Virus record (IMG/VR): IMGVR_UViG_3300036861_000361
Coordinates: 1 to 63,549 of that record
From: a virus
Taxonomy: Duplodnaviria > Caudoviricetes
DNA: 63,549 nt
Reading direction: 5' to 3' (one strand)
Part shown: in pieces, positions 2,641 to 24,562 of the stretch
Layout: each line of letters opens with the position of its first letter
Numbering within the stretch: position 1 is the stretch's first letter
The notes under the pieces: model-generated
The model's input: the letters and a program-made list of their open reading frames with translations, nothing else
The model's database searches: none
Told to the model about the DNA's origin: nothing
Made by a program: the position numbers and the translations under genes

Positions 2641-3033
2641 ATGAGTGAAGAATGCTTGGATGAAATTACGGAGCGGTCGTCAAGCACTGTGACGGTCAGC
2701 TTCTTTGACGAGGATGGCAATGCTGTCACTCCCGATGCTGCCACCTATCGCATTGATGTCCCCGTATCTCGCACCAGCATTCTCCCGGCCACAACGTTTC
2801 CATCACTTAGTACAGCGGTTGACTTGGAAATCACTTCTGACCAGAATCGTGTTGTTAAGGAACGCCAGCCCTCCGAGGTGCATGAAGTGACGATTGAATT
2901 CGATTACACTGCTATCAGTGGCCCAAAGCACGGCACTGCTCGTTACCGTTATCGCATCATCAACCTTTACGGCGTGACCACTGTGCCGAGCGCATCAGTG
3001 AGTCCGTCCAGTTCAACCAGTCCGTCAGTGTGA
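2641..3033 (+). CDS. Probable virion protein with C-terminal Ser/Pro tag
   Basis: Beta-rich 130 aa ending [16 protein letters not shown]; upstream of portal. Confidence 0.6.
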   Translation: MSEECLDEITERSSSTVTVSFFDEDGNAVTPDAATYRIDVPVSRTSILPATTFPSLSTAVDLEITSDQNRVVKERQPSEVHEVTIEFDYTAISGPKHGTARYRYRIINLYGVTTVPSASVSPSSSTSPSV

Positions 3034-3042
3034 GGTGCAAAT

Positions 3043-3207
3043 ATGGTTTCATTATCGTTAATCGTTTGCCTTGTTGGCCTGTTACTCTATATTGTTAGCA
3101 GCGAGAAGACGCGGCGACAGTTGTGCGAGGATGTAGGCCGCATCCTGTTTGCCGCTGCTGCGCTCGCAGTGTTAATCGTGTGGGCCACTAAAGTTATCTA
3201 TCCATGA
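3043..3207 (+). CDS. Small two-TM membrane protein (not in ORF track)
   Basis: GAGGT RBS; MVSLSLIVCLVGLLLYIV...ILFAAAALAVLIVW. Confidence 0.6.
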   Translation: MVSLSLIVCLVGLLLYIVSSEKTRRQLCEDVGRILFAAAALAVLIVWATKVIYP

Positions 3208-3216
3208 GGAGGATAT

Positions 3217-3360
3217 ATGGCTGAACCTGAGAAACCCGTACTCCCTGACGATCTCAACTACGGCGACATTTCTGGCCCGCATGACTGCGCCGTATTGGCA
3301 CGAGCCAGCAAGGAACAATGTGAGGCTCGCATAAAAGAAATTGATGAGGGTACTGAGTGA
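3217..3360 (+). CDS. Small hypothetical protein
   Basis: GAGGAGG RBS; stop overlaps portal start (GTGA). Confidence 0.55.
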   Translation: MAEPEKPVLPDDLNYGDISGPHDCAVLARASKEQCEARIKEIDEGTE

Positions 3361-4967
3361 AGCCTTTCGACAAGTTCACCTACGATGACGCCGCCCAGTT
3401 GCTCGGCCCCCATGTGCCGCAGGATGGTACACGGGATTTCCCATCTACCAATAAGAGACGCCCATCCACCGCGATAGCCGCTACTCAGTTCTACAGTGGA
3501 GACCACTGGCAAAACTCCCGTGGTTTCATCGGTCAACTTCCCCCCGCATCTCTGCCGGGGGCGTCTCAGATTTTAGCTGACATCGAGGCGGGGTTTGTCT
3601 CGGAGAACGTTATCCAAGAGATTGTCGAGACACACAAGGGAGGCATACTCGGGCGTGAACCTGCGTGGTCGTTTTTGAAAGCGGGTGTGAAGTTGGGTTC
3701 TAAGCCCACTGACACCGACCGTGACCAGGAGACAGGTGATACGCTGACTCCCTGGTGGAATGAGCGGCAGGCACTGAGAGACTTTCAGAAGGCTTTGACC
3801 ACGCTGCTGTGCGAGGGGCTGGTTGTCCGTCGTCTCTTCTTCCCTCGGGGACTACTGAAGCAAGGCAATCGCATCAGCGCCACCGATATTGCGAAGGCGC
3901 TCGACTTCATCTACTTCCAGACCATCACTGCCGACAAAGCCGGAGTATTCATCAATCCTGAGACGCAGAAGCAAATCGGCATCTTCCTGTTCGAGCAAAA
4001 AGCTGCGGACGATACTGTTATTGCTAATTGTGCTGAGTTGTCTTTCCTGAACGACAACGGCACCACCGCCTGCAAGGTCGTGAAGGACGAAGGCGCACCT
4101 GAAGAATTTGGCCCATACGAACTTGGGGGCCGCTTACTCATCTACGAACTCGACCGCCGCGCCATTATCACTGAGCAGGTACAATCCAGCCAACGCTGTC
4201 TCAACCTGGCCCACACCATGATGATGCGCAACGTGAACATGGCAGGGTCGCGGGAGCGCATGGTCTTCAACGCCAAGCCACCGGAGAACGTCCCCGGCCT
4301 TGATATTCCGCTGGGCAGCAAGAAGCGCACCCCCGGCACGCACAAGACCGGCCCCGGTGCCAATATGTATATCCAGGGTTGGCCCATATACAACGACGAT
4401 GGGACGAAGATAGTTGGCTACACCAATCCGAATGTCACTGTTACCGATCCTGTTCCTGTAGTTACTTTCAAGGAAACTATCGACACTGAGAAGCAGTCGA
4501 TTTACTCGCAGTGTCACCAGCGTCATGTACTGATTGTTGACAAGGCGGATACCAGTGGTCGGGCACGGGAGGTGGCACGCAGAGAATTTGAGCGTTCACT
4601 GAAAAAGACGAAGACCGTCATTGATGCCTGTGGACGTTGGCAATTGGAGACAGCATTGCGTCTTGCTGCTCAGGTTGCTGGTCAGGTCAGCAAATACGCC
4701 AAACTCCGCGCCGACTTCAACTGCATTGTTGATGCTGGCGAGGTTGATACTGAGAAGCAGAAGACTGTGATTGAAATGCGCAAACCCGGTGGGCCGGGAG
4801 CCAAGCCGCTTATCAGTGACGAGACAGCACGGGGCATGATCGGACTTGAAGATCCGGCAGCAGAGTTGGTGAAGATTGATCAGGAAGCAGCACTGCCTCC
4901 CGGTAAACCTGCACCATTGCAGCCTGACAAACCTGCTCAGCCCGATCAGCCGGAGATGGTGCAATAA
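3357..4967 (+). CDS. Portal protein
   Basis: 536 aa, FYSGDHWQ N-terminal motif, SGRARE motif, first large gene of head module. Confidence 0.75.
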   Translation: MKPFDKFTYDDAAQLLGPHVPQDGTRDFPSTNKRRPSTAIAATQFYSGDHWQNSRGFIGQLPPASLPGASQILADIEAGFVSENVIQEIVETHKGGILGREPAWSFLKAGVKLGSKPTDTDRDQETGDTLTPWWNERQALRDFQKALTTLLCEGLVVRRLFFPRGLLKQGNRISATDIAKALDFIYFQTITADKAGVFINPETQKQIGIFLFEQKAADDTVIANCAELSFLNDNGTTACKVVKDEGAPEEFGPYELGGRLLIYELDRRAIITEQVQSSQRCLNLAHTMMMRNVNMAGSRERMVFNAKPPENVPGLDIPLGSKKRTPGTHKTGPGANMYIQGWPIYNDDGTKIVGYTNPNVTVTDPVPVVTFKETIDTEKQSIYSQCHQRHVLIVDKADTSGRAREVARREFERSLKKTKTVIDACGRWQLETALRLAAQVAGQVSKYAKLRADFNCIVDAGEVDTEKQKTVIEMRKPGGPGAKPLISDETARGMIGLEDPAAELVKIDQEAALPPGKPAPLQPDKPAQPDQPEMVQ

Positions 4968-5134
4968 TGCCACTACCAAAAGCACGCAAAGGGAGTGGAA
5001 AGAAGGCACGCCAGCGGGTTGTGGGTAAAGTCATGCACGAGCTGAAGCACAGTGGCAAAAAGCGACCACGTAAGCAACGAATAGCTATTGCTCTCAAACA
5101 AGCTGGTCTTTCACGCAGGAGTCGCAGGAAATGA
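4967..5134 (+). CDS. Small highly basic protein, DUF6496-like (not in ORF track)
   Basis: MPLPKARKGSGKKARQRVVGKVMHELKHSGKKRPRKQRIAIALKQAGLSRRSRRK; coupled to portal stop. Confidence 0.65.
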   Translation: MPLPKARKGSGKKARQRVVGKVMHELKHSGKKRPRKQRIAIALKQAGLSRRSRRK

Positions 5135-5331
5135 GTGCTGTTGTCCCGATTCTTGATGTAAAACCCAGGCGTTATATCCGCTCTCCGCGAGTCGTAAATG
5201 TCCGTGAACTTAGCGAAGACAACTACCTTGTGACCGATCTCAATGACCAGAAAGACTACGAGTATGTCATCAGCAAAAAGGTGCTGGACAGGGAATTCAA
5301 GGAGATAGAACCGAGTGTCAGCCCAGGTTAA
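5131..5331 (+). CDS. Hypothetical protein
   Basis: ATGA coupling, AGGAG upstream. Confidence 0.55.
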   Translation: MSAVVPILDVKPRRYIRSPRVVNVRELSEDNYLVTDLNDQKDYEYVISKKVLDREFKEIEPSVSPG

Positions 5332-5512
5332 AGTGATTAAATCAGTTGACGTGCAACCAAACTGTGATACCATCGCCCCGGTTGACAGGGATTTTTGGAT
5401 GTCCATTCGGCATGCGCTCCTGATGCAACTGGCAACTATTGAGAAGAAATTAGGCATCAGTCGCCGCTGTCCACATTGTGGAAATGACGTGCGGCAGCAG
5501 CGTTTGACTTGA
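5315..5512 (+). CDS. Hypothetical protein with CPHC
   Basis: Overlapping run of + ORFs. Confidence 0.5.
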   Translation: MSAQVKVIKSVDVQPNCDTIAPVDRDFWMSIRHALLMQLATIEKKLGISRRCPHCGNDVRQQRLT

Positions 5513-5534
5513 GATGTACGGGTAGTAGAAACAG

Positions 5535-5582
5535 CCCGCTGTTGGAATTGATTCGTCAGTTCCAGTGGCGGGTTTTTCTTTT
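5535..5582 (+). terminator. Rho-independent terminator-like hairpin
   Basis: CCCGCTGTTGGAATTGA-TTCG-TCAGTTCCAGTGGCGGG followed by TTTTTCTTTT. Confidence 0.7.
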
Positions 5583-5602
5583 GTATACACATCGGAGAAA
5601 CG

Positions 5603-5914
5603 ATGCAGCCTGTTAGTCCAGTGATTCCCGGCGTTGACGCTACCGAAGTTATTTACGCCGCCGATCAGCCACAGTATCGACCGCTCCCAGCTCTACGCTG
5701 TCTCGACGGAACGATACTGACGCGATGGGAATTCACCGAAGAGGAAAAGCAACAAGTGCTTGAGCAGGGCTACATCTACCTCGCGGTAAATACTTTTAAC
5801 ATGCCCCTTCAGCCAGTGATTATCATGGTAACAGCACCTGATATATCAAAAGCTGAGTACGTGGAAATGCCAGAAGGCACTGAAGGCTTTAGCGAGTTCC
5901 GAAACATAAACTAA
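5603..5914 (+). CDS. Hypothetical protein
   Basis: GGAG RBS; DQPQYRPLP motif seen in phage hypotheticals. Confidence 0.65.
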   Translation: MQPVSPVIPGVDATEVIYAADQPQYRPLPALRCLDGTILTRWEFTEEEKQQVLEQGYIYLAVNTFNMPLQPVIIMVTAPDISKAEYVEMPEGTEGFSEFRNIN

Positions 5915-5954
5915 CCAACCCGCGAGACAGCGGAACAGAGAGGCCAGACAGCCA

Positions 5955-6683: not shown

Positions 6684-6695
6684 GGAGATTAACCC

Positions 6696-7109: not shown

Positions 7110-7119
7110 AGGAGACGCG

Positions 7120-8169
7120 ATGAGATCACTTATTCCATTAGTTCAGGAGTTGTCGCCCGCGTCTCTGACTGTAGTGGCGCAAACAATATCCCAAGGCAAC
7201 ACCGGCAGGCTGCGGTGGCCCATATTCTTTCCACGACAGAATGTGGATTCCATCGACCTGCGGGAAGTCACCACTATCGACTTTCGCCCGGTGTCGGACA
7301 GACGCGAGTGGAACTCCCGAGGCCGGTTGATTCCCGATATCACCCCGCCAATCCGCGAGCTGAGCATGATCCCGGTTGAGGGTTACTACAAGTGGGATGA
7401 ATACGAGATTCAGAAACTCAGCGAGCGGGCACTGGCGAATTCGGAGATCATCAACCAGATTCTCGGTCGCTCCATTCCTGGCAAGGTGGCCCAGATTGTT
7501 GAAGCCAACGACCGCCGTATCGAGGTGGATGCGTTCACCGCTTGGGCAACCGGCACCAACGTTGCCAAGAACCCGCAGACAGGTCAGACCCACACGGTCA
7601 GCTACGGCTTCCCGAGTGATCGTCTTACTACAGCGGGCACCGCGTGGGACGATCCCGGTGAGAACGCCTATGACCTACTTATCAGCTTCCTTGAAGACGC
7701 CGCTGACAAGATTGGCCCAGTGACAGGCGTGGTGCTCAGAACCGCGCTGCATCGCGCTATCCATGCCGACGCGCCCAATGGCCCACTTGGCACAATCATC
7801 CCGCGTGGACGGTTGGCTGAAGCAGTCAGCGACACCCTCGGCATCCCGTTCAACTTCTTCCTGTTCGATGACACGCTCGACGTGTTCAACGACGGCGGCA
7901 CCGCAACCACATCGACCAACGTGTGGCCTGCTGGCTACATTGCGGCAGTCCCATCCGGTGGCGTGGTTGGACGCACGGTGTTTGCTCCCGTGGTACGCGC
8001 AATGGAAATTGCTCGTGCCTCAGGCAGCCCCGGCATCGATCAGCGTGGGCAGACTGTCTACTACCAGGAATCGGTGATGGGCCGCGACTTGACTGTAGAA
8101 GTGCAGGTCAACCCGTTCACCATTCCCAATGAGCAAAAATTGAGAGTGGAAAACACACTCGTCACCTAA
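7120..8169 (+). CDS. Major capsid protein (lambda gpE-like layout)
   Basis: 349 aa, AAGGAG RBS, IFFP..RRIE..W motifs, follows decoration gene. Confidence 0.8.
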   Translation: MRSLIPLVQELSPASLTVVAQTISQGNTGRLRWPIFFPRQNVDSIDLREVTTIDFRPVSDRREWNSRGRLIPDITPPIRELSMIPVEGYYKWDEYEIQKLSERALANSEIINQILGRSIPGKVAQIVEANDRRIEVDAFTAWATGTNVAKNPQTGQTHTVSYGFPSDRLTTAGTAWDDPGENAYDLLISFLEDAADKIGPVTGVVLRTALHRAIHADAPNGPLGTIIPRGRLAEAVSDTLGIPFNFFLFDDTLDVFNDGGTATTSTNVWPAGYIAAVPSGGVVGRTVFAPVVRAMEIARASGSPGIDQRGQTVYYQESVMGRDLTVEVQVNPFTIPNEQKLRVENTLVT

Positions 8170-8180
8170 AGGAGCAACGC

Positions 8181-8384
8181 ATGAAGGACAATCGTGAGAT
8201 CGTACATGGTATCAGGGTAATGGTTGCCGCTCCCGAGGGACGGAAAACGCCACAGTCCAAGACGTTCTCCTCTGGCATGGAGGATGAACTGGCGGCTGAG
8301 TTCACTGATGCACAGTTGAAGGCAATGATGCAGCGCGGTGACATCACCGGCAACTGGAAATCGACCAAGGGCAAAGCCAAATAA
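8181..8384 (+). CDS. Hypothetical head-region protein
   Basis: AAGGAG RBS after capsid gene. Confidence 0.65.
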   Translation: MKDNREIVHGIRVMVAAPEGRKTPQSKTFSSGMEDELAAEFTDAQLKAMMQRGDITGNWKSTKGKAK

Positions 8385-8423
8385 CTTGCAGGGAAACCTG
8401 TCCCGGAAGCGGAGGTAGAGTTA

Positions 8424-8855
8424 ATGTGGTTTAGAAAAGAAAACAACCTGTTGATGCGGACGTATTCCAACAGTGGACGGACGTATGGTGCACTGCAACT
8501 GGGGATTGATGCAACAGGCAAGCGCATTGTCATTGGTACTACCACCGACTTGGTGCTGGATGGCAACTTTGCCAATGGCTCTGTATCGGCTTACGGCAAA
8601 GGATCGATAGCACTTGACCCCGCAGGCAGCATGCACGTTGTTGATGCCGATGGTTACTGGCAGACTCCGACGATCACGGCAGCCAGTCCAAGTGTGTCAC
8701 CGTCACATTCGGCATCCCCAAGTCACAGCACCAGCCCGAGTGTTTCACCGTCAACCAGTCCATCGAGAAGCCCGAGTGCGTCGGCAAGTCCGTCTGGGTC
8801 AGCCAGTCCATCCGGATCGGCATCACCCAGTCACTCTGCGAGTCCGAGTGCGTAA
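8424..8855 (+). CDS. Probable virion protein with ~56-aa C-terminal Ser/Pro tract
   Basis: GGAGG RBS; ends [19 protein letters not shown]...SPSHSASPSA. Confidence 0.7.
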   Translation: MWFRKENNLLMRTYSNSGRTYGALQLGIDATGKRIVIGTTTDLVLDGNFANGSVSAYGKGSIALDPAGSMHVVDADGYWQTPTITAASPSVSPSHSASPSHSTSPSVSPSTSPSRSPSASASPSGSASPSGSASPSHSASPSA

Positions 8856-8861
8856 TGAACC

Positions 8862-11221: not shown

Positions 11222-11232
11222 GAGGCTACGCA

Positions 11233-12078
11233 ATGAGTCTATTTTCAGGTCAAGGCCCGGTCTTTTACAGTAACCGGAACCCAACAACTGGCCTCCCAAT
11301 CGAGTTTCACTGGTTCGGTAATGCACCGGCGTTCACGCTGGGCCTAGCCACCAACACACTGACTCACAAGGAGTCGTACACCGGCAACCGCACCACGGAC
11401 GCCCGCATCATCACCGAGTTGACTGCCACGGTCGCCATCACAGTCGATGACTTCAAGGAGTCCAACCTGTCGCTTGCAACCTACGGCTCCGGTTCACAAG
11501 TGGCTGCTGGCTCTGTGAGTGGTGAAGTGGTCTCGACGGTTGTACCGACCATTGGTGAGCGGTATGCATTGAAGTCCACTGGCCGCGTGTCCAATGTGGT
11601 GCTCAGTGGTGGCGGCGTAATTTCCGCAACCAAGTATACGGTAGACGCATCCGGTGTCATCGTATTCACCGACATCAGTGGCATCTCCGCCCCAGTCACT
11701 GCAGCCTATGACGAAGCAGCATCTCGCCAGGTCGGTATCTTCAAGACCGCTGCCCCGGAAGTCACCGTGCGGCTGGATGGTCTCAACACCGCCACCACAG
11801 TCAGTGGCGACTTCGAGCGCACTATTGTTGAGGTATTCAAGACCCGCCTCGACCCGGCTGAGAACTTTGGCTTGATCAACGATGAGTTTGGGCAGTTGGT
11901 CATCAACGGGTCGGCCCTAGTGGACACACTCAAGGCAGCCAGTTCACCCACGGGCCAGTTTGCGCGGTTCATCTACCTTGATCCACCGTCACAGACTGTG
12001 CCAAGTGCAAGCGTGAGTCCTTCCGTGAGTCCGAGCGGATCGGTTTCACCGTCACACTCCGCGTCTCCTTCAGTGTAG
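11233..12078 (+). CDS. Major tail (tube) protein with C-terminal Ser/Pro tag
   Basis: FSGQGPV..FGNAP..HKES tail-tube motifs; ends [26 protein letters not shown]. Confidence 0.85.
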   Translation: MSLFSGQGPVFYSNRNPTTGLPIEFHWFGNAPAFTLGLATNTLTHKESYTGNRTTDARIITELTATVAITVDDFKESNLSLATYGSGSQVAAGSVSGEVVSTVVPTIGERYALKSTGRVSNVVLSGGGVISATKYTVDASGVIVFTDISGISAPVTAAYDEAASRQVGIFKTAAPEVTVRLDGLNTATTVSGDFERTIVEVFKTRLDPAENFGLINDEFGQLVINGSALVDTLKAASSPTGQFARFIYLDPPSQTVPSASVSPSVSPSGSVSPSHSASPSV

Positions 12079-13394: not shown

Positions 13395-13418
13395 GCCAGA
13401 GTGCCGGATACAACCGGC

Positions 13419-16400
13419 ATGGCTGACGATACCACACGTTTAATCATTTCCATAGAGACCCTGCTAAAAGGGGTCGATAAAACTCTCGCTGGCTTGTCGC
13501 AAGTCGAGAAGCGTCTGAAGTCTGTCGGCACTGCTATCTCCACTGGCGCAACTGACAAGAGCATTGCGCGAAACCTAGCGGCCCAACAGCGGACAGTGGA
13601 GGCTTTGCAACGGCAACGCAGTGCGGCTCTCATTGCTGAGGAACGCAAACGAATAGCAGCGGTCGAATCTCTCCAAGCGAAACGTAGTGCTGCACTAATT
13701 GCGCAAGAGAAAAAGCAGCAGGCGGATATTCAAACCGTGCAAAGGCGGGCTGCTGCTCAGCAACTCATTGAGAGTCAACGACAGCAGGCTGCTGTTAATT
13801 CGCTTCAGAGACAACGGAGTGCCGCCCTTATTGCTCAGGCGCGACAAGCAGAACAACTTGCAGCAAGACAAGCCAAAGCATCTTTCGCTGCGCTCCCCCA
13901 AGCAGATGCCCACGTACAGGCATTTCGCAAAATAGAAGCGGCTAACACAGCGGCGGCGGCATCTGCTAATGCACTCAATGCTCGCCTGCAATCCCTCGGT
14001 AACGGGCTGCGCTCACTGGGTCAAGGTGCGGCATCAATCGGCATTGGCCTGACCGTTGCGTTGACCGTGCCACTGGTGGCGTTTGGCAAGGCAGGACTGG
14101 ATGCGGCTGTCACCATTGACTCGCTGAGACGCGGACTCATTGCCATCGTCGGCTCATCCGCCGAGGCCGAAGTCCAACTAAAGCGGCTCACGGAAATCGC
14201 CAAACTTCCTGGTATCGGTTTCGAGGAAGCAATACAGGGGTCGATTCGATTACAAGCGGTTGGTTTCAGTGCCAAGGATGCCGAGAAGGCACTGATTGAG
14301 TTCAGCAATGCCATCGCGCTGACAGGTGGTGGCCGTGAGGAACTCAGCCGAGTCACGGTGCAGTTGGGCCAGTTGGCGGCCAAGGGCAAAGTGCTGAGTC
14401 AGGACTTGCGACCCATCATCGAGGCTGCTCCGGCTGTGGGTCGCGCTCTCAAGGCAGCGTTCGGTACAGTCAATGCCGATGACATCGCCAACCTCACTAC
14501 CAACTCCCGCGAATTCCTCGACGTGCTCACCAAGGAACTGGAGAAGTTGCCTCGCGTTGCTGGTGGTGCTAAGAATGCTTTTGAGAACTTCCGTGACACA
14601 ATATTTCGAGCCAGTGCGGCAATCGGTGATGCGCTCATTCCAGTACTGAGTAACCTCATTGATGTAATCGGCCCTGCAGTCACGCAGTTGGCCCAGTCGT
14701 TCCGTGAACTGCCAACACCAATACAGACGACTCTTGTGGCTATCGGTGCATTCGCAGCCGTACTTGGCCCAACCCTGTTTATATTTGGTCAGTTCACTAC
14801 TGGCATAGGCCGCACCATAGTTTCCCTTGCACAACTCAATGCTCTCGGACTGCTGCCTACCATTGCCAACTTCCGTCTGCTTGGTCAGGTGATGGCGGGA
14901 ACAGCATCCATTGCAGGGTCAGCCGGGCTATCGACGCTCATTGCTGCTGCGCCGTGGCTGGCCTTGGCTGTGGGTGTGGTTGCTGCGACAGTCGCTTTTG
15001 ATGCATGGCTGCACAAGAAACGGGAAATAATTAAGGTTGATGTCGAGGCTGCAAAGGCTCGCAATGCCCGGCTTGCCAGCGTTGATACCGAAGTCAAGTT
15101 CCTTCAGGATTTGCAGTCAAAGGTATCCCTCACTGCTGACCAGCAGAAGCGGCTGGAGCAGGCTTATGGCAGTCTCACCGGAGCAGCGAAAGTGCGTGTC
15201 AACGGCATTGAAGATGAAACTGAGAAGTTGAACGCTCTCATTGCCGCCAAGAAGGAGCAAGCCAAGATTGACGCCTTTGCCGCACGAGCCACGCAGGCCG
15301 CACTGGTTGAGAATGTTGTTACTGCACTTGAGAAGCAGACCAAGGCACAAAATGATCTCAACGGCGCAAAGGAACGCACTCTCACCTCGGCAGCCTTCCG
15401 CCGCTCCATTGAAAGTCTGGACATCACTGAGCAACAGACACGTCTGACTGAATTCCAGAACAAGGCTGCTATACAAGCCGAGGCCGCACAAGGAGATTTG
15501 AGCAGGGCGGAATTGGAGACTGGCAAGGCCATCAAGGTTCTCTCCGAGGTCACTGGGGTAAGCGTCAAGTCCCTGTTTGAGCAACTCAAAGCAGCGGGCA
15601 AGACTGAAGCGGAAATTACCCAGCTCCAGAAGGCTATAGATGCGCTGGCTAAGAGTGAGCAGGACGGGCTGGGCGCGGTTGACGATTTTACTAAGGCTCT
15701 CAATGACCAACTCAATGAACTGCTGAAGTTGGGCAAAGCGGCTCAGGACGCTGAAACCAGACGCAAAACAATCATCAGTGGTGCCGCTGCTGAAGCCCGC
15801 GAAGTCTCCGATTCATTTGAAGGCGCAACCAAGTGGATGAAAGCGTTCATTGCCGCCAACCCTGAAATCGGTGAGGCAGTGAAAAAGGAGTTGCAGCTTC
15901 AGGGCAAGTCGCTGGACGAGTTTCTGGAGGACACACTTGGCAAGCGAGACAAACGCGGTGGGGCACTGCGCAATGCTCAGGAACAACTGGCAAAGGCGAT
16001 TGCAGCTGCGGCTCTCTCATCTGCCGAGCAGGAGAACCAGATTGAGCACACCAAGAATGAGCGGCTGTTGCAGGAGAATGAGCATGCGTTCAAGCTGCAG
16101 CTCATCTCCTATCGCCAGTACCTGAACCAGCGTGCCTTTCTCACCAGCAGCAACATCGAATTGGAAATCAGAGAACAGGAGCGAATTGCCACCAATGCGC
16201 TCGCCCAACAGCAGCGGTTTGCAGATAGAGCAGCACGGGCTGGCATACCTGCACCTGAGCGTGTGAAGGCGAAAGCTGGAGCAGTCGAAGCAGAGAAGAT
16301 TGTCATCGAAGCCAACACCAAGATTCTCGCTCTCAGGGCCAAGCAGAAAGCTGACATAACTGAGATTGATCAACTGTTGGCTGAGTCGCAGCGGCAGCAG

Positions 16401-18344
16401 ATTAAGGACATCCGTCAACTGGAAATCGAGTACGCCACGTTGCGCGGTCGCATTGAGGACGCGCTGAACGCAGCCACCGATGAGAAGTTTCGTGAGAGCC
16501 TGTTGCAACTGGGACTGGCCCAAGACGATCTCAACAAACGATTTCAACTGGCAAAGGAAGCTAAGGACGCCGATAAGCAAGCAGAAATTAGTTTGGCCCA
16601 GGCAATTAACCAGCGACACATAGATGCCATCAACGGTATTGTTGATGAAGAGCGAGCCACTAATAAGCTGACTGTGGCACAGGAGTTCATCTCACAGGCC
16701 AAGCAGCGACAAGCCGATTTGGAGAAGCAGATAGCATTCGATGTTGACTTCCGTGGTCTCAAGGAAGAGGAAGCCATTCGGCGTCGGCTGGAAGGCGAGG
16801 AGAAGGTCAGGAACTCGCTGAAGATTGCCAAGGACATCATTCAGGAGACCATTGCGCGTCTTGAGCAACTCGGTCTCACTCCACCAAAGGGGTTGATAGA
16901 TTTTGTCAACGACGTGACGCTCGCCATGAAAGGGTTGGGTGAGTTGTCCTTCGCTGAGCAGTTCCGCTTGGCCCAGCAGGAATTCGACCGGCTCAACGAT
17001 GAGCGCATCGTGAAGATTCAGGACGTTGAGCGGGCAGTGCGCCACCGTGACCTGGCTGAGATTGAAGGGCGCATCCTTATCAAGAAACTCAATGGTGAGT
17101 ATGTGGCTGACCTTGAACGGCAGGCTGAGGTACTCAGGCAGATTGCTGAGAAGTCTGGTCAGCAAGGATTGCTCAAACAGGCTACCGATGCCCAGCAAGC
17201 TGCCAAGGACATTAGAGCAGCTACAGATGAGGTGGCGGATTTCAACATCGCTCTCCGTTCTACTACCATCGACGCTCTCCGTGAAGGCTTCTCACAGTTC
17301 TTCAAAGACCTCACCGACAACACCAAGTCAGCCAAGGAGAAACTGCTCAGCCTGCTTGACAGTGTGCGCAACCGTATCAACGATTTCATTGCCGAGCGGC
17401 TGGCGGACAAATTGATTGAGAGTCTGTTTGGCACTGGCAAAAAGGGCGAAGAGGGTCTGCTGGGTGGTATATTCAACAAGGTGCTGGGAATCGAGCCGGG
17501 GGCGGATACTGCTACGGCAGCGAACACAACGGCCACGGATGCCAACACCGAGGCCATCAATGGATTGACCACTGCATTTGGCGGGCAGGTTGCAGGTGGG
17601 ATAGGAGGGCTGTTTGGTGGTGGCGGTGGGGCAGGCGGCACGGTGGGCCAGGTTGCAGGAATTGCTGATAGCATACTCGGTAGTCTCGGCATCAGTGTTC
17701 CAGGTCTTGGAGAGACAGCACAAAAAGGTTCGACTGTAATCGAGGCACTGAACATCGTCTCTGACTGGCTGTCGAAGTTGTCAACTGCGGTGAAGGACTT
17801 GACCGATGCAGTCAACCAGAACACACAGGCGCAGGGTGGCAGTAGTTTACAACAAGGGATTACCGCGTTATTCGGTGGTGGAGGTGGTGAGGCAACTGGA
17901 GATATCATACCCGCTGCTCCCAAGGGCAGAATCATCCGTGTAGCCGAAGCTGGCTTTGATGAGGCCGTGCTCACCACCGACCCGAAGCATGCGCTCAGAC
18001 AAGCACGGATACTGCACGAGTTTCTCAGCCGCACCCATGGGCTGATGGGACGGTTTCGAGCAGTGCCTGAATTCGCTGAAGGTGGACTGCTCAGTGCGCG
18101 AGATGCCGAGGCCAACATGCTGCACTCGATTGCTGCCGGTCGCGTTGGCTCACCCAGCTTGCCTGACAGCGTAGTAGCTGGTGGTGGCAACCAAGTAACA
18201 CCTATCAACTTCCGCAACATCAACTTGTTCGACCGCAGGCGGCTGGTTGGCGATCACATCCGCTCAGCCGAGGGTGCAAGAGACATTATGAATATCATCT
18301 CCGAGAATTCGGACGAGATTGGCAGACGTATAGGAGTCAAATAG
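13419..18344 (+). CDS. Tape measure protein
   Basis: ~1640 aa Ala/Gln-rich helical, tape-measure domain QLGQLAAKGKVLSQDL; ATG 13419 or GTG 13401. Confidence 0.92.
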   Translation: MADDTTRLIISIETLLKGVDKTLAGLSQVEKRLKSVGTAISTGATDKSIARNLAAQQRTVEALQRQRSAALIAEERKRIAAVESLQAKRSAALIAQEKKQQADIQTVQRRAAAQQLIESQRQQAAVNSLQRQRSAALIAQARQAEQLAARQAKASFAALPQADAHVQAFRKIEAANTAAAASANALNARLQSLGNGLRSLGQGAASIGIGLTVALTVPLVAFGKAGLDAAVTIDSLRRGLIAIVGSSAEAEVQLKRLTEIAKLPGIGFEEAIQGSIRLQAVGFSAKDAEKALIEFSNAIALTGGGREELSRVTVQLGQLAAKGKVLSQDLRPIIEAAPAVGRALKAAFGTVNADDIANLTTNSREFLDVLTKELEKLPRVAGGAKNAFENFRDTIFRASAAIGDALIPVLSNLIDVIGPAVTQLAQSFRELPTPIQTTLVAIGAFAAVLGPTLFIFGQFTTGIGRTIVSLAQLNALGLLPTIANFRLLGQVMAGTASIAGSAGLSTLIAAAPWLALAVGVVAATVAFDAWLHKKREIIKVDVEAAKARNARLASVDTEVKFLQDLQSKVSLTADQQKRLEQAYGSLTGAAKVRVNGIEDETEKLNALIAAKKEQAKIDAFAARATQAALVENVVTALEKQTKAQNDLNGAKERTLTSAAFRRSIESLDITEQQTRLTEFQNKAAIQAEAAQGDLSRAELETGKAIKVLSEVTGVSVKSLFEQLKAAGKTEAEITQLQKAIDALAKSEQDGLGAVDDFTKALNDQLNELLKLGKAAQDAETRRKTIISGAAAEAREVSDSFEGATKWMKAFIAANPEIGEAVKKELQLQGKSLDEFLEDTLGKRDKRGGALRNAQEQLAKAIAAAALSSAEQENQIEHTKNERLLQENEHAFKLQLISYRQYLNQRAFLTSSNIELEIREQERIATNALAQQQRFADRAARAGIPAPERVKAKAGAVEAEKIVIEANTKILALRAKQKADITEIDQLLAESQRQQIKDIRQLEIEYATLRGRIEDALNAATDEKFRESLLQLGLAQDDLNKRFQLAKEAKDADKQAEISLAQAINQRHIDAINGIVDEERATNKLTVAQEFISQAKQRQADLEKQIAFDVDFRGLKEEEAIRRRLEGEEKVRNSLKIAKDIIQETIARLEQLGLTPPKGLIDFVNDVTLAMKGLGELSFAEQFRLAQQEFDRLNDERIVKIQDVERAVRHRDLAEIEGRILIKKLNGEYVADLERQAEVLRQIAEKSGQQGLLKQATDAQQAAKDIRAATDEVADFNIALRSTTIDALREGFSQFFKDLTDNTKSAKEKLLSLLDSVRNRINDFIAERLADKLIESLFGTGKKGEEGLLGGIFNKVLGIEPGADTATAANTTATDANTEAINGLTTAFGGQVAGGIGGLFGGGGGAGGTVGQVAGIADSILGSLGISVPGLGETAQKGSTVIEALNIVSDWLSKLSTAVKDLTDAVNQNTQAQGGSSLQQGITALFGGGGGEATGDIIPAAPKGRIIRVAEAGFDEAVLTTDPKHALRQARILHEFLSRTHGLMGRFRAVPEFAEGGLLSARDAEANMLHSIAAGRVGSPSLPDSVVAGGGNQVTPINFRNINLFDRRRLVGDHIRSAEGARDIMNIISENSDEIGRRIGVK

Positions 18345-18345
18345 C

Positions 18346-18756: not shown

Positions 18757-19577
18757 TGGATCAATTTTACCTCTATGCTTTCCGAGACAGAGACCGTGAC
18801 TACCTATTCACTGGTGTGGGCCATGCGATCATCTTCGATGGTGCCGTGTATGCTCCAGTTAGCATCTCGCACTCCCCGCCCACATTCTCCTCCGACCCAT
18901 CGCAGGCCCGCGTCACCGTGCATCTGCGCGACAACCTGCTGGTAGCAATGAACTACATTTCACACCCGCCACCAAGCAAGACTGAGTTGGTAATCTACGA
19001 GGTATTGGAAACATCCGTGGTTGGCAACCAGCTTCAAGTGGAGCAGTTTGAACCGCACTGGTCAGGACAAGTCGTGCGGATAGCATGGCGGGATGGATTC
19101 AGGTCAGTGGATATGTCCTGTCGCACGGCCCACGAGATTCACTTCAGCCGGGAGACACTCACAGAGTCACTGAATCCACTATGCCGCTTCCACATTGGCG
19201 ATGGTCGCTGCCCGGTCAACATCGAGGACTTCAAAGAGACTGTGCAAGTGACAGGTATATCGGATGACATTTCTGAGCCAACTGTGACAGTGACAGGTTT
19301 AGCCCAACTCGACACCTACTACGCAGCAGGCATGATACGCACTGCCGATGACGATTGGCGCACAGTGGATAGGTGCGTGGCCGGTGTGTTGACACTATCA
19401 CGGGCATTTCCATCCACTGCGCTGCAAATCGGTGATGACGTAGATGTATTCGCCGGTGATGACCTCACGCTGGAGACTTGTGCAGTGAAGTTTGGCACAC
19501 CAACGAACTCAGGTGAAGCATGGGGCGGCTGGAAGCTGACACCTAATCGAGACTTTCAGAGGTTTGGGATTAAATGA
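18756..19577 (+). CDS. Tail tip/hub protein (DUF2163/BR0599-like)
   Basis: CRFHIGDGRCPV and GDDLTLETCAVKF..N..WGG motifs. Confidence 0.75.
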   Translation: MDQFYLYAFRDRDRDYLFTGVGHAIIFDGAVYAPVSISHSPPTFSSDPSQARVTVHLRDNLLVAMNYISHPPPSKTELVIYEVLETSVVGNQLQVEQFEPHWSGQVVRIAWRDGFRSVDMSCRTAHEIHFSRETLTESLNPLCRFHIGDGRCPVNIEDFKETVQVTGISDDISEPTVTVTGLAQLDTYYAAGMIRTADDDWRTVDRCVAGVLTLSRAFPSTALQIGDDVDVFAGDDLTLETCAVKFGTPTNSGEAWGGWKLTPNRDFQRFGIK

Positions 19578-22414
19578 GCGCGCAATTAGCTCTCCTTGCA
19601 CTTCAGGCATACCTGGGGATTGTCTTTCAAAAACGGCCCCATAAATTTACGTTTCAGGAGTTGCTCGATTCCAACAAAGGTGATGAGACTCGACCTATCT
19701 CATATATTCGAGGTCGCTGGAAGACTACACCGCAACGCATCTGGCTGGGAGACTTCACCGCCCATGCTGTTGAGCGAGATTCCGAGTGGACGGATTTCGT
19801 AATCGGAGGGCTGATTGGTGGAGTCGTTGGCGGGCTGGCTCTAGCTGCACTGCTTGATACTATAACTGTCGGCTATCGTTATAACGTCGGTCAGGGATTT
19901 GCACTGACCTGGGGGCCAATCAATCGGGTGCATCAGGTGTATGTGCAAGACTTAGCCTGTGCAGTCGCTCCAACGGTAGACAATGCTGGTGGCTCTCTCC
20001 TGCTCGACTTCCCCACGGCCTTCGGTGGCGACCAGCCTCCCGGTGGCGGTGGCATTTACGGCGTGTGCGATGTGATACCGGGGACGTACACGCAGGCACG
20101 CAACCCATACCTGCAAAGTGTCGAAGGCAACATCCCTGCGTTGCATGGAGTTGCTGCACTCATCATCCGTGGTGAGTCTGGTGCCCCATCATCAGGCTAC
20201 TTCTCAGCGAACGTCTTGGAACTCCGCGAGTGGCAGGTGGAGCTGATGGCATGGCCGGACGTACTGGGCACAGGTGATGCCGAACTTCCCGATCAATCAT
20301 TCAACCGCATCCACGCCATGTACGAGTGGGCCACGGCAGCAGATTATGGCGCACAGTATCCACTGGAGAAGATTCACCTGCCATCGTGGCGAGCAGCAGC
20401 AGCCCAGTGCTTTACTGATGGGCTGGGCTTCAGTGGGGAAATCAATACTGGCGGCAACGTAGGTGAAGTGTTTGACCAGTTGCGAGCGTCAGTGGATGCC
20501 GAGGTCTATGAGCACCCACGCGATGGCCTCAAGATCAAGCTCATTCGCAAAGACTACTCAATTCCATCGCTGCAGGTGCTGAGTCAGGCCAACTGCAACT
20601 CGGTCGAAGAGTACACACCCGGTGACTATGCGGACACTTTCAATCGTGTGACGTTGCCGTATATCAATGCAGAGAACAACTACCAGCCACGACCGGCAGT
20701 CTACGAAGACCCGGCGAACTTTCAAATACAGCGGCGGGTTGCCAGCAAGGAAATCAACTACCCCGGTGTGGCGTCCGCTGAGCTGGCCCAGAAACTGGTG
20801 ACACGCGATGGGCGGGTGTTGGCCCAACCGTTTCCCCCACTGGTACTGAATTCAGGAGAAGTTGGCCGCAATCTCTACCCCGGTGAAGTTTACAAGTTCC
20901 AATGGTCAGACCCGCTCATTGAGAAGATATTCAGGGTGCATGCGCGGACACCATCGGTCAGTTACGAAGGGGAGAAGAATTTCCGGCTGACTGCTACTGA
21001 GGATCAATACTCGATTGGCATGAGCGTGTTTGGTGCGCCGGAAGAGTCCGATGCAACCAATCCCGGCACCATCTGGGCCACTGCGCCACCGTCAGCGGCA
21101 TGGGATGATGCTCGGATTCCACCGGCTGGGCTGGAGATGTTCATCACGACCGGGCTGGCTGGGACTCTGGACACTTTCATTCGTGGGGCAGTGCTGTTCG
21201 ATGCTTACGCTGGAGGCCAGTACGCTCGCATCTATGTGACACCACCGGGCGGGTCGCAAACACTAACGCCGATTCATTTGTCGCCCGATGCCAATGACCA
21301 GGCGACCTTCATCTGGCCTGCACTGATTGCTGGCACATATCAGTTCTGTGTGCAGACCTTTGCTGCTGGCCCACCATTTGCTACCAATGGAGTCAAGGTG
21401 TGCGAGACGATTGCTGCCTCGTCATTCTCGGTCAGTCCGAGTCACAGCGTTAGTCCAAGCGTATCACCATCTATCAGTCCCAGCTCGTCTGTAAGTCCTA
21501 GTGAAAGCCCTTCGGTTAGTCCCAGTATGAGTATGAGTCCAAGTGGCAGCCAGAGTCCGTCTGCATCCCAAAGTCCATCATCTTCACAATCCTTGTCTGT
21601 GTCGCCTTCTGGTTCTATCAGCGCCTCAATATCACCGTCTGCTTCACAGTCTCCGTCAAGTTCAGCCTCTAGTTCAGTGTCACCTTCGGCTAGTATGAGT
21701 CCATCTTCATCAGTATCGCCTTCCGTGCCCACAGGAATTACATTTGTAGCGGCAGGCGCTTTAGGCACATCTACATCAGGAACAAGTCTGTCTGTTGTAG
21801 CCCCAACGCTGGCTGCTGACGACATAATGGTTTGCTGCATTATAAATAAATCGGTCACTGCCAATGTAATCAGTCCGCCGGATGGCACTTGGACAGCAGT
21901 TATCGCTCAGGAGGTCAATAACTGTACCTTGGCAGCAGACGATTTTGAGTATGCGGTATTTTGGAAACGGGCAGGAGTTGGAGATTCAGGCGCGACGTTT
22001 AACTTCACTAAAGCATCGCAAGATTTTGTGTTGTTCGCCGGAGTGATTGGAGCATGGCGAGGAGCAGTTGCAAGTGGTAGCCCCTTGGACGCAACTGCGG
22101 CAGTGAGAACAAATACTGCTGCCCAGACTGACAATGTCAGTTTCCCGGCATACGATCCTACATCAACCGACGTACACGTGATCTACATAGCTTTCTACGG
22201 AAATGATTTGGTAGCGTTCTCAGCGGCAATGTCAAATGACACCAACCCTGATTGTACTACACGGTGGAGCGTGGAATCTTCAATTGGCAATGATTGCGCG
22301 ATTGCCTGCACTTCAGGTGATAACGATGGTTCCAGTATTGCGTCAAGAACATGGGCCAGTAATGCTACCACTGATGCCGGTAATACAGGCATTGTATTCG
22401 CACTGATACCATAA
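19574..22414 (+). CDS. Central tail tip/host-specificity protein with internal ~100-aa Ser/Pro linker and C-terminal beta domain
   Basis: 946 aa, KLIRKDY, FNRVTLPY; SPS tract ~21417-21729. Confidence 0.75.
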   Translation: MSAQLALLALQAYLGIVFQKRPHKFTFQELLDSNKGDETRPISYIRGRWKTTPQRIWLGDFTAHAVERDSEWTDFVIGGLIGGVVGGLALAALLDTITVGYRYNVGQGFALTWGPINRVHQVYVQDLACAVAPTVDNAGGSLLLDFPTAFGGDQPPGGGGIYGVCDVIPGTYTQARNPYLQSVEGNIPALHGVAALIIRGESGAPSSGYFSANVLELREWQVELMAWPDVLGTGDAELPDQSFNRIHAMYEWATAADYGAQYPLEKIHLPSWRAAAAQCFTDGLGFSGEINTGGNVGEVFDQLRASVDAEVYEHPRDGLKIKLIRKDYSIPSLQVLSQANCNSVEEYTPGDYADTFNRVTLPYINAENNYQPRPAVYEDPANFQIQRRVASKEINYPGVASAELAQKLVTRDGRVLAQPFPPLVLNSGEVGRNLYPGEVYKFQWSDPLIEKIFRVHARTPSVSYEGEKNFRLTATEDQYSIGMSVFGAPEESDATNPGTIWATAPPSAAWDDARIPPAGLEMFITTGLAGTLDTFIRGAVLFDAYAGGQYARIYVTPPGGSQTLTPIHLSPDANDQATFIWPALIAGTYQFCVQTFAAGPPFATNGVKVCETIAASSFSVSPSHSVSPSVSPSISPSSSVSPSESPSVSPSMSMSPSGSQSPSASQSPSSSQSLSVSPSGSISASISPSASQSPSSSASSSVSPSASMSPSSSVSPSVPTGITFVAAGALGTSTSGTSLSVVAPTLAADDIMVCCIINKSVTANVISPPDGTWTAVIAQEVNNCTLAADDFEYAVFWKRAGVGDSGATFNFTKASQDFVLFAGVIGAWRGAVASGSPLDATAAVRTNTAAQTDNVSFPAYDPTSTDVHVIYIAFYGNDLVAFSAAMSNDTNPDCTTRWSVESSIGNDCAIACTSGDNDGSSIASRTWASNATTDAGNTGIVFALIP

Positions 22415-24562
22415 ATGGCAACTTACGAAGAAACTGTTTTAGCTGACACTCCAGCGTTGTATTACCGCCTTGACATGGTGGGCGCGGCGGTAAATGGTGA
22501 CACAATTCCTGACCTATCCGGCAACAACCTGCACGGCACTTTGGAGTTTATACAACCCGGTACTACTCCCGAACCTTACGGCTATCCTTCGCCGATAGAG
22601 ACGGACGAAGGCAGCCGGGAATTCAGAGGATTCAACCAAGGCACTTTTTCCAGCACCAGAGTTGCACGAATTGGACGGGCATCTGATTCCCAGATAGAAC
22701 CCGATGGGGACTTCGCTCTTGAGGGATGGCTACGACTACCAAATGCTACAGGCGGATCAGCGGCCTTCGGAACCATTATGCAGGTAATGTTTGGGCGAAC
22801 AGGTTCAATATTCGCTTACATAGACCACTTCAATTTCATAGCAGGTTGCGTTATAGACACGGCTGGAACTGGCTGGCTGATTGTATCGCCTACCCCGGTA
22901 GAATATGGAGTTTCCTACCATACGGTAATTGAACGACTCGGTAATGCTTTGATTCTCAAGATAAACGGAGTTTTGCAAAACTTCACCACTATTACGAGCG
23001 GTCTGCCGAATCGCATGGACGCGCCTGGCACGTTTCTAAATGCGTCAGGGGGAATTCAACAGCTTCCGGCATTCTTTGTACATCCTTACCAGATTGCCCA
23101 GATGGATGCTCGCTATGATGAGATAGCATTTTACAACGCGGCGCTTGGCTCAAGAGCAGCAGCGCACTATGAAGCAGCGTTGAATACGCTGGAACTACGT
23201 GGAACGTGTAACATCCGCACGTCTGTGCAGCTTGATGGCAGTGATGACCCAGACCCGGTTGCTTATCCGTTTCGTCACAATTGGAGTGAGCCGGTAATCG
23301 AGCGTCTGCGGTGGCGCACCTCGCTGTTCAAGCCGGAGAACGGTTCGACTGAGTTTGCACGGCAACGGTCAGCACTGCGCCGGTCGGTCGAATATCAACA
23401 CCTGCTCTACAACGAGAACTTGCGGCGGCAATTCGAGGCCCGGTCGTTTGGTGGGCGCAAGTCGCTAGTGCAGTTTGAGCCGGACAAGGTGCAGGTGGCA
23501 TCGCTACCCGCCGCTACTACAGCCGTCACCTTCGACACCGTTCATATGGACTTCGAAGTGGGCCATTATGCACTCATCTGGCAGGATGATGACACCTATG
23601 AGTACAAGCTACTGACAGCAGTGGATGACAGTGGAGTACAGTGGGATGGCAACCTGACTCGTGACTATGTGAACCCGTGGTTGAAACCGGCGCGCATTGC
23701 TCGCCTACCCGCATCACAGGACATGGACGCAGAGACCGACACCATTGGTAATGCCTCGACTATCTATGAGTACCAGCTGGAAGATGAACCACTCAACTCG
23801 AGACGCATCACGCCATTTGTGGAGACACTAACCTACCGTGACCGAGAAGTATTCGACCTGCGCGAATGGCAGGGACATGATTACAGTGAGATTCCAAAGA
23901 TTGAGTTTGCAGCCGACCGGGCCGAGCTTGACTTTGGCACTGGGGTGGTCTCCCAGAAGCAGTATCGCTGGGGTGCTGAGCAAATCACGCCATACAACAT
24001 GAACCTGCAGGGGAGGCCACTGATAGCCAAGTATCTCGGTTGGTTGTACCGGAGAGCAGGCATGAACACGCCGTTCTGGATGCCCACATTCAGGCAGGAC
24101 TTGGAACCACTGTTGGGCGACACGCTTGACCTGACTGTGCGCGGCCACGAGTACACGCAACTTTATGCGCCTGCTGATAATCGTATCGACCTGGCATTTG
24201 TGTACTTTGACAGCACGGTGATTATGCGACGGATTGAAGCGGCAGTGGCGGATGGCATGAATGACTTGTTGACACTCGACGCAGCGGTGCCTACGTTCAC
24301 CAACCTGCGCTGGCTGTGCTTCCTGCGCCGGGTGATTCTCAGCAGTGATGACCTGGAGATTGCGTGGGAGACAGACAACGTGGTGCAAGTGGCTTTCGCA
24401 GTCAGGGACGCACCACTGGACTGGGCACTGGGGAGTCCTTCAGTAAGTCCTTCACCATCACCGTCGCTGTCACTTTCACCATCGCCCAGCCACTCAGCAT
24501 CTGGATCGGTGTCGCCAAGCGGTAGCGCAAGTCCTAGTCACAGCGCAAGTCCCTCGGTATAA
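22415..24562 (+). CDS. Tail structural protein with N-terminal LamG/ConA-like domain and C-terminal Ser/Pro tag
   Basis: YYRLD..DLSGNNLHG..DEIAFYNAAL; NWSEPVIERLRW; PFWMP; terminal SPS tract. Confidence 0.75.
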   Translation: MATYEETVLADTPALYYRLDMVGAAVNGDTIPDLSGNNLHGTLEFIQPGTTPEPYGYPSPIETDEGSREFRGFNQGTFSSTRVARIGRASDSQIEPDGDFALEGWLRLPNATGGSAAFGTIMQVMFGRTGSIFAYIDHFNFIAGCVIDTAGTGWLIVSPTPVEYGVSYHTVIERLGNALILKINGVLQNFTTITSGLPNRMDAPGTFLNASGGIQQLPAFFVHPYQIAQMDARYDEIAFYNAALGSRAAAHYEAALNTLELRGTCNIRTSVQLDGSDDPDPVAYPFRHNWSEPVIERLRWRTSLFKPENGSTEFARQRSALRRSVEYQHLLYNENLRRQFEARSFGGRKSLVQFEPDKVQVASLPAATTAVTFDTVHMDFEVGHYALIWQDDDTYEYKLLTAVDDSGVQWDGNLTRDYVNPWLKPARIARLPASQDMDAETDTIGNASTIYEYQLEDEPLNSRRITPFVETLTYRDREVFDLREWQGHDYSEIPKIEFAADRAELDFGTGVVSQKQYRWGAEQITPYNMNLQGRPLIAKYLGWLYRRAGMNTPFWMPTFRQDLEPLLGDTLDLTVRGHEYTQLYAPADNRIDLAFVYFDSTVIMRRIEAAVADGMNDLLTLDAAVPTFTNLRWLCFLRRVILSSDDLEIAWETDNVVQVAFAVRDAPLDWALGSPSVSPSPSPSLSLSPSPSHSASGSVSPSGSASPSHSASPSV

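Follow-up and report, generated by a model that had tools for sequence, protein, structure and literature searches.

The Gram-positive serine-rich repeat glycoproteins (SRRPs; Fap1, GspB, SraP) carry long (Ser-X)n repeats, which are glycosylated in the cytoplasm by the soluble enzymes GtfA/GtfB before final placement of the proteins. Animal polypeptide N-acetylgalactosamine (GalNAc) transferases (ppGalNAc-Ts) glycosylate Ser/Thr in Pro-rich repeats, the favoured positions being Ser/Thr with Pro at −3, −1, +1 and +3. Virion glycosylation of the mycobacteriophages Che8, Corndog and Myrna was reportedly described by Freeman et al. in 2023 in Cell Host Microbe, and we know of no repeat acceptor tag in the capsid glycosylation of chloroviruses or giant viruses. 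An autonomous glycosylation machinery for structural proteins is reported for chloroviruses and giant viruses (PMC9614988, PMC4691112); capsid and tail tube of mycobacteriophages are reported to be glycosylated by the phages' own glycosyltransferases (GTs) and O-methyltransferase (PMC12363180, PMC11600133; see also PMC11256854). As far as our searches reach, experimental proof of particle glycosylation by phage enzymes is limited, within the literature searched, to mycobacteriophages. Here we analysed the record IMGVR_UViG_3300036861_000361 of IMG/VR, an uncultivated soil-type phage of 63,549 bp with an estimated completeness of 95%; the whole record is referred to as the window. Five virion-module proteins and one further protein carry a Ser/Pro-rich tract of the form SPSxSx or (S-X)n, and tracts of this kind are tightly associated with one GT family. 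We consider it likely that the tracts act as portable acceptors, O-glycosylated in the cytoplasm by soluble GTs that the phage itself encodes; in this reading the phage probably sugar-coats its own particle. The proteins carrying the tract are as follows.

2641..3033, + strand: P0001, 130 aa, between the GT gene 201-1895 and the putative portal gene; 16-aa C-terminal tag (nt 2983-3030)
8424..8855, + strand: P0002, 143 aa, just after the capsid gene; 85-aa small beta core and ~57-aa C-terminal tag (nt 8682-8852)
11233..12078, + strand: tail tube (phrog_807, E 7e-57 over aa 1-248); 26-aa C-terminal tag (nt 11998-12075)
19574..22414, + strand: baseplate hub, gpJ-like (phrog_1101; PDB 8rk3_o, E 1e-16); tract in an internal linker
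22415..24562, + strand: distal-tail-protein-like (Dit-like) protein (phrog_1082; PDB 8rk3_U, E 6e-16, and 8vjh_B); 42-aa C-terminal tag (nt 24434-24559)
54084..56333, + strand: array protein, 749 aa; 232-aa N-terminal domain, ~458-aa (S-X)n array (nt 54780-56153) and short C-terminal repeat region

The enzymes in question are encoded as follows.

201..1895, + strand: soluble two-domain GT of GT2 type (Pfam Glycos_transf_2, E 1.6e-16), first gene of the late module
57401..59359, + strand: GT2-type glycosyltransferase fused to a Methyltransf_24 methyltransferase
59761..60813, + strand: GalE-like NAD-dependent sugar-nucleotide epimerase/dehydratase (Pfam Epimerase, E 2e-48)
62724..63365, + strand: stand-alone Methyltransf_24 methyltransferase, paralog of the C-terminal domain of 57401-59359

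Translation of the five virion-module genes placed the tract at the C-terminus of four proteins and in a linker of one, in agreement with the positions given for all five in the original prediction. The ends SPSHSASPS(V/A)-stop in three proteins, the start VPSASVSPS in two tags and the lack of a tract in the capsid protein (7120-8169), all pointed out there, were also observed. The residues then listed for x in SPSxSx (V, A, G, H, T, Q, E) do occur, but the list was incomplete, as S, L, I, M, R and P are found as well. The sixth and largest array, aa 233-690 of the 54084-56333 protein, lies outside the span originally noted. In the five tags Ser occupies 0.78-0.97 of the alternate positions, and the overall share of Pro is 16-20%; owing to this alternation and this Pro content, a Pro is located at −3, −1, +1 or +3 from 338 of the 366 tag serines. 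Thr is scarce (13 residues against 366 Ser), and all six Ser codons are used. Across the three plus frames 'SPS' was counted 27, 37 and 107 times; the corresponding minus-frame counts were 19, 14 and 16. When the pooled residues of 19 late proteins were shuffled 2000 times, a run of (S.)x6 appeared in one shuffle only, as compared with 5 of the 19 real proteins. The frame bias of 'SPS' and the near absence of such runs after shuffling indicate that the tracts are not due to chance.

Comparison with the known systems was then made. The mycobacteriophage system resembles the window in having phage-encoded GTs and an O-methyltransferase (in the window, GT2 in 201-1895 and 57401-59359 and Methyltransf_24 in 57401-59359 and 62724-63365). 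Its targets include the tail tube subunit, and its modification is reported at the C-terminus of virion proteins, as would be the case for the tags of the window. The enzymes of the window are, however, not detectably related to those of mycobacteriophages, GT 201-1895 being unmatched by tblastn. The Che8 capsid protein ends with ...NKTGS and its tail tube with ...YSDGS, without repeat tract, whereas (S-X)n tracts of 16 to 458 residues are spread over six proteins of the window. In addition, the window capsid is untagged, while the tail tube and a small protein encoded beside the capsid gene carry C-terminal tags. What sets the window apart from mycobacteriophages is a long, recognisable, transferable repeat as putative acceptor, together with a different enzyme family. 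In the literature searched, which included few subscription journals and no supplements, no description of such Ser/Pro tags in phage particles was found. SRRPs resemble the tagged proteins of the window in their long (Ser-X)n dipeptide repeats, but X is Pro in a third of the window positions, and the repeats are borne by virion proteins instead of adhesins anchored to the cell wall. Chloroviruses and giant viruses differ in their eukaryotic hosts and in their enzymes.

The nature of selection was examined on ortholog alignments. That the tracts reflect protein-level selection and not DNA slippage, as originally proposed, was shown by codon switching, by divergence of the DNA and by the absence of DNA repeats in the tags. 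In codon-aware alignments of orthologs, both TCN and AGY codons were used at 30 of 41 invariant tag-Ser columns (15/22 for P0002, 6/7 for P0001 and 9/12 for the tail tube); the alternate serines are invariant and the intervening residues variable. The DNA behind the identical SPSHSASPS(V/A) ends is identical at only 15-18 of 30 nt, and that behind the two identical tag starts at 21 of 27 nt. Tandem Repeats Finder gave no DNA repeat in the five tags and two weak 18-nt rows only in the giant array.

A tight association was found between the arrays and the GT family of 201-1895. Using an alignment of seven orthologs of this GT, we scanned IMG/VR and obtained 141 contigs with a relative, from which 80 loci were kept (38-67% identical). 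At least one open reading frame (ORF) with (S.)x6 or a longer run, often of hundreds of residues, was detected within 10 kb of the GT gene in 65 of the 80 loci. Where both flanks were complete, arrays were observed in all 28 loci, including 24 of 24 outside the clade of the window, and 148 of 152 array ORFs were co-oriented with the GT gene. As a control, 80 terminase-centred loci without GT (991 kb; terminase 42-100% identical to that of untagged relatives) were examined; co-oriented arrays were found in two, one of 14 and one of 296 residues. The difference between 65/80 and 2/80 gave a Fisher p value of 4e-27, which is inflated by the relatedness of the loci. Another control set of 13 GT-less loci (355 kb) contained no (S.)x6 ORF. 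After masking of the arrays, 154 tagged proteins, the six of the window included, fell into 63 BLAST clusters, indicating that the tract sits on many unrelated domains. Portability of the tag, proposed at first from the window, is thus supported also beyond its clade. Among ten non-tag domains from distant GT loci searched against PHROGs and Pfam, Laminin_G_3, Gly_rich_2, DUF2341 and one tail-fibre-assembly family were recognized; six had no match, and a seventh matched DUF6406 only below cut-off. The proteins with Laminin_G_3, DUF2341 or Gly_rich_2 are fibre-like. The same grammar was kept at GC contents from 0.34 to 0.56, with X being Pro at a frequency of 0.33, followed by Ala and Val.

A scan of contigs of metagenome-assembled genomes (MAGs) with the GT alignment added nine contigs, with arrays, of up to ~1,700 residues, in five of the nine loci. 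Six are labelled as Patescibacteria/CPR (candidate phyla radiation; Peribacteria, three Saccharibacteria, Yanofskybacteria and Patescibacteria group), and one each as an actinobacterium, a gammaproteobacterium and unclassified. These contigs (L169-L177) could be a hint of the host or mis-binned phage contigs; as short phage contigs are often mis-binned, no host was drawn from the labels.

Closer relatives were collected by an IMG/VR scan with the tail tube, which gave 16 loci with 15 complete genes, and the 15 records behind them were fetched for calling of ORFs. Ten of the 15 complete tail tubes are tagged, while the other five end at 251 aa with ...IYFDA. In all ten tagged relatives, wherever the gene is on the contig, tracts were found on the orthologs of the tagged proteins of the window, that is, P0001, P0002, the tail tube, the hub linker, the Dit-like tail and the giant array protein. 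Five of them (G001, G005, G006, G007, G008) have an additional gene downstream of the Dit-like one (for instance L049:2804-4792), whose product of 614-668 aa contains a short SPS tract in its interior; this gene is absent from the window. Among untagged records, no clustered SPS was found in G002, G010 and G015, and G004 gave one two-SPS match within a 61-aa ORF; a six-fold S-x run was absent from all four. The fifth, G009, has two small SPS clusters by a looser detector and none by the stricter one.

Homologs of GT 201-1895 (58-67% identical) were detected in all seven tagged relatives in which the GT region is covered, and in none of the untagged records. Matches to GT 57401-59359 were obtained in seven of the 15 records, all tagged: six contain orthologs (G001, G003, G005, G006, G007, G008), and the seventh, in G011, is weak and falls on its gene for the 201-1895-type GT. 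Six records reach a completeness of 90% or more; a match to this second GT was obtained in the four tagged ones among them, and the untagged G002 (91%) and G004 (100%, with terminal repeats) have none. PF00535 was likewise not found in G002, G004, G009 and G010, and two genes were found in G003 as positive control. The tagged records without GT match, G012-G014, are fragments of 17-35% whose contigs end before the expected place of the GT. Alignment with the GT-less phages, the check suggested in the original prediction, indicated that the orthologs of tail tube, hub and Dit-like protein terminate in these phages at the expected start of the tag, and no GT2 gene was found in them; in every record with the GT region covered, tags were accompanied by the GT. 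The untagged tube, hub and Dit-like orthologs are colinear with the tagged ones. Among the Dit-like orthologs, those of G002 and G004 end 6 aa past the aligned core, while that of G009 aligns from residue 205 only and ends 15 aa past it. In the untagged hub orthologs (639-682 aa), a short RLLEDG-x-x-RLLEDG end (for example in G002 and G004, L034/L037) replaces the linker and the distal domain. For P0002 there is no untagged relative. A further alignment-based tail-tube scan added only seven distant, untagged, prophage-like loci and a P0002-based scan no new record, so that the clade of the window in IMG/VR is small.

We then considered the tagged proteins individually. The core of P0001 is predicted to be an Ig-like beta-sandwich (AlphaFold2 pLDDT 73) with a disordered tag; for P0001 and P0002 pLDDT, the model's confidence score, was 30-50 in the tags and 70-89 in most of both cores. 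A fold search with the P0001 model gave generic Ig-like matches and weak matches to phage connector or neck chains (E 6e-3), and that with the P0002 model gave nothing at E ≤ 0.001. Since the fold searches were weak or null, the virion positions of both proteins remain guesses; from its position, P0002 may be a candidate capsid decoration protein. The P0001 tag is kept in eight of eight orthologs. For P0002, the tag is present in 118 of 119 database homologs with a length of 16-80 residues, and 108 of the 119 end with SPSxSxSPSx-COOH, the last residue being T, A or V. The sole homolog without full tag, P0126, begins its tag with ASPSVSPSA and continues into a frameshifted-looking Ser/Pro tract, probably because of a sequencing or assembly error. 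Tail tube homologs of cultured phages align to aa 1-249 only, and among 120 database homologs 90 are tagged and 30 untagged. The hub consists of a conserved N-terminal part of 615 aa, a ~107-aa (S-X)n linker (aa 616-722, nt 21419-21739) and a distal domain of 224 aa. Its residues 76-94 form a Gly-rich hydrophobic segment, VIGGLIGGVVGGLALAALL, with a Kyte-Doolittle value of 2.29. The distal domain of the hub and the N-terminal domain of the array protein match the same unnamed viral clusters in ESM Atlas (0.95-0.96), which is a lead only; by BLASTP between the two domains no significant similarity was found (E 1.7).

With respect to the enzymes, a phmmer search of GT 201-1895 against PDB gave 13 matches, of which 12 are polypeptide GalNAc-transferases, with E values from 5.5e-6 (1xhb) to 2.4e-3. 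These matches lie within aa 197-301, the region of the Gal/GalNAc-T motif, and LDAH of the phage protein aligns with LDAH (DxH) of 1xhb. Residues D89, H91, W240, G241, E246 and W265-R271 (D89-x-H91 and the WFAHFFR region) are invariant among seven orthologs. From these sequence matches, the N-terminal GT-A domain appears to be most like the polypeptide GalNAc-transferases, the enzymes that initiate mucin glycosylation. Past aa 320 there is a second conserved domain without assigned family. By tblastn against 50,697 cultured phage records, Che8 included, GT 201-1895 had no match at E ≤ 1e-3, and GT 57401-59359 matched cultured phages through its methyltransferase part only. No hydrophobic segment was found in either GT (maximum 19-residue Kyte-Doolittle mean, 0.72 for 201-1895 and 1.13 for 57401-59359), implying that both can meet virion proteins in the cytoplasm. 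The protein encoded by 59761-60813 has GalE as its best NCBIfam model, below the cut-off of that model, and blastp found no match to it in the 15 relatives; it is the sole pointer, and only as a hint from sequence, to a UDP-GalNAc donor. Among the 39 ORFs of the window scanned with Pfam, a part of the total, no kinase or acyltransferase was found, nor were GT4 GtfA/GtfB or SecA2/SecY2 genes.

Animal mucin-type O-glycosylation (ppGalNAc-T, CAZy GT27; PDB 1xhb, 2d7i, 4d0t) has in common with the window the DxH and Gal/GalNAc-T motif regions and the dense Ser/Pro acceptors. In contrast to GT27, the putative acceptors of the window are Ser and not Thr, the enzyme is predicted to be cytoplasmic and prokaryotic-viral, neither the ricin-type lectin domain (none found with Pfam in either GT) nor the type II membrane anchor of the Golgi enzymes was detected, and, in contrast to SRRPs, GT4 GtfA/B and accessory Sec genes were lacking among the scanned ORFs. 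By analogy, the system would work like mucin-type and SRRP glycosylation, yet it lacks defining features of both families.

Taken together, the following mode of action is proposed. Late in infection, the GT-A enzymes 201-1895 and 57401-59359 would act in the cytoplasm, before or during assembly, and move sugar from a nucleotide sugar onto the tag serines of virion proteins. A second GT domain may lengthen the glycan, and the fused or the stand-alone methyltransferase may cap it. The particle would then bear disordered, sugar-coated bristles on the tail tube, the baseplate and head-associated proteins, presumably exposed outward, while the hub and the 54084-56333 protein would hold a distal domain out on stiffened glycosylated stalks. 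Candidate uses of such a coat are colloidal or protease stability, masking and adhesion. O-glycosylation of the periplasmic oligosaccharyltransferase type (PglL/PilO) was rejected by reasoning, since the cytoplasm is where virion proteins assemble and neither GT is a membrane protein by prediction.

Several observations weigh against this proposal. The similarity to GalNAc-transferases is modest, the best E value of 5.5e-6 extending over ~88 residues, and GT 57401-59359 has no sequence match in PDB. Animal ppGalNAc-Ts favour Thr, whereas Thr is nearly absent from the tags, which have Ser in its place. Two domains are joined by the tract in both the hub and the 54084-56333 protein, where it could be a plain spacer. 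Fifteen of the 80 GT loci are without array, all being truncated loci of 4.6-17.6 kb. Conversely, arrays were seen without GT: locus L178, the only one retrieved through its array, on an 11.9-kb contig, shows none, and the longer array of the terminase control (L204:14414-17023, an 869-aa ORF with 296 array residues) has no GT in view. The latter ORF lies 3 kb downstream of the terminase gene and runs off the contig end, in the same layout as in the window; a GT is probably located just beyond the end. Finally, the tag label corresponds to a single change on the tail-tube tree, with 16 as well as with 120 rows, to a single change on the hub tree and to two changes on the Dit-like tree, and the head module of the untagged phages is unrelated, with no homolog of the capsid, the portal, P0001 or P0002. 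The contrast in tag and GT within the clade is therefore of little statistical weight, as it reflects one or two evolutionary events together with a different head module.

Other explanations of the tracts were weighed against the same data. They might be unmodified flexible spacers or entropic bristles, like Pro/Thr/Ser linkers, with the GTs acting on host envelope glycans or phage DNA; modification of host O-antigen or DNA by phage GTs is well known, two tracts out of six do connect domains, the tags are disordered in the AlphaFold2 models, and glycosylation of the tags of these phages is itself a prediction from sequence. Four of the tags, however, end the protein and link nothing, the invariant alternate Ser with variable X is stricter than a spacer needs, and the SPSxSxSPSx-COOH end is shared by 108 of the 119 P0002 homologs. 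Moreover, the arrays follow one GT family across unrelated phages (65/80 against 2/80 loci), and the nearest solved relatives of GT 201-1895, a GT predicted to be soluble, are protein O-glycosyltransferases. We thus regard unmodified spacers as unlikely, though as the most serious of the competing explanations. Modification of the serines by some other chemistry (phosphorylation, acylation or host glycosylation), and not by the phage GTs, is in our estimate quite improbable: Ser-rich disordered tails are generic substrates of many enzymes and the Pfam scan covered 39 ORFs of the window and not all, but no kinase or acyltransferase was among those scanned, and the coupling to this particular GT family would be left unexplained.

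Marginally less probable again is that the tags serve as assembly or docking signals, for each other, for the 54084-56333 array protein or for a host surface polymer, with an indirect link to the GT. The conserved start V-P/A-S-A-S and the conserved end SPS-x-S-A-SPS-T/A/V do resemble recognition elements; the same ends would equally fit an enzyme recognition or priming site, the tag length varies from 16 to 80 residues within one family with X positions drifting freely, and no partner is evident. Neutral low-complexity drift or an assembly artefact has hardly any chance of being correct. Slippage can expand low-complexity tracts, but codon families switch at conserved serines, Tandem Repeats Finder gave no DNA repeat in the five tags, and the tags recur across independent metagenome assemblies (10/15 tube loci, 118/119 P0002 homologs, 90/120 tube homologs); by the codon switching, the lack of DNA repeats and the P0002 homologs this explanation is effectively refuted. 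Acceptor tags for the phage's own soluble GTs are accordingly preferred.

The record as a whole is distant from cultured phages: positions 1-25000 of the window had no match by megablast against the cultured phage records, and the capsid protein (7120-8169) none by tblastn. The late module occupies the plus strand from 201 to ~25,000, and the other record end (49.8-63.5 kb, plus strand) encodes the putative terminase, the array protein, the GT-methyltransferase fusion, the GalE-like epimerase, an endonuclease VII and the stand-alone methyltransferase. In relatives with terminal repeats, an uninterrupted series of genes encodes the array protein, both GTs, the 130-aa protein and the portal, indicating that the glycosylation genes and the tagged late genes form one block split by the record ends. 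Other genes of the window are as follows.

1878-2408, antisense: HNH_3 gene
3357-4967, + strand: 536-aa ORF without family match, putative portal by place and size only
7120-8169, + strand: major capsid protein (phrog_29, E 3e-13), C-terminus ...RVENTLVT, untagged
13401-18344, + strand: 1647-aa ORF, putative tape measure by length and by place after the tail tube
24615-25010: XhlA-like gene, directly after the Dit-like gene in the window
30672-33362, − strand: 896 aa, uracil-DNA-glycosylase-superfamily domain fused to family A DNA polymerase
50866-53265, + strand: putative large terminase, intein-interrupted, with a family match for the intein only (Pfam Intein_splicing, aa 252-551)
56733-57020: DUF4406 / nucleoside 2-deoxyribosyltransferase-like, 95 aa, flanked by the genes of the array protein and of the GT-methyltransferase fusion
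61150-62055: 301-aa ORF without family; best PDB match, a GT4 enzyme, at E 0.33

The exteins of the putative window terminase are closest (63% identical) to the intein-less 465-aa terminases of the untagged G004 and G010, and not to those of tagged relatives, indicating that the head, tail and packaging modules are mosaic. The GalE-like epimerase gene, the ORF 61150-62055 and an endonuclease VII gene, together spanning 59761-62615, have no counterpart in the 15 related records, and by sequence comparison this segment looks like a window-specific insertion into the glycosylation block.

Beyond the window, we give an even chance to the wider proposal, drawn from the sequence comparisons, that (SPSxSx)n is a freely transferable sequon of cytoplasmic mucin-type O-glycosylation, invented or captured by tailed phages, with a two-gene enzyme core and spread over many lineages and GC contents. 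The core would act on any protein that bears the tract, and tubes, baseplates, head-associated proteins and long fibre stalks would be coated in this way; at least 141 contigs of IMG/VR encode the enzyme. If tag glycosylation is true, the coated virion proteins and the number of sites would be predictable from the genome, and a chemical question would become a trait readable in sequence. For the tail tube by itself, some 4,000 available serines can be estimated from the 1647-aa putative tape measure, its length per residue, which we take to be ~1.5 Å, the 43.2 Å rise of a hexameric disc in JBD30, and the 12 serines in the tag of each subunit. The tag and its enzyme would also provide a compact pair for O-glycosylation of recombinant proteins in bacteria, of use in glyco-engineering. 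For the phages themselves, such a coat would bear on stability and adsorption in soil and on masking or presentation of the surface, and the system would represent a prokaryotic-viral counterpart of mucins.

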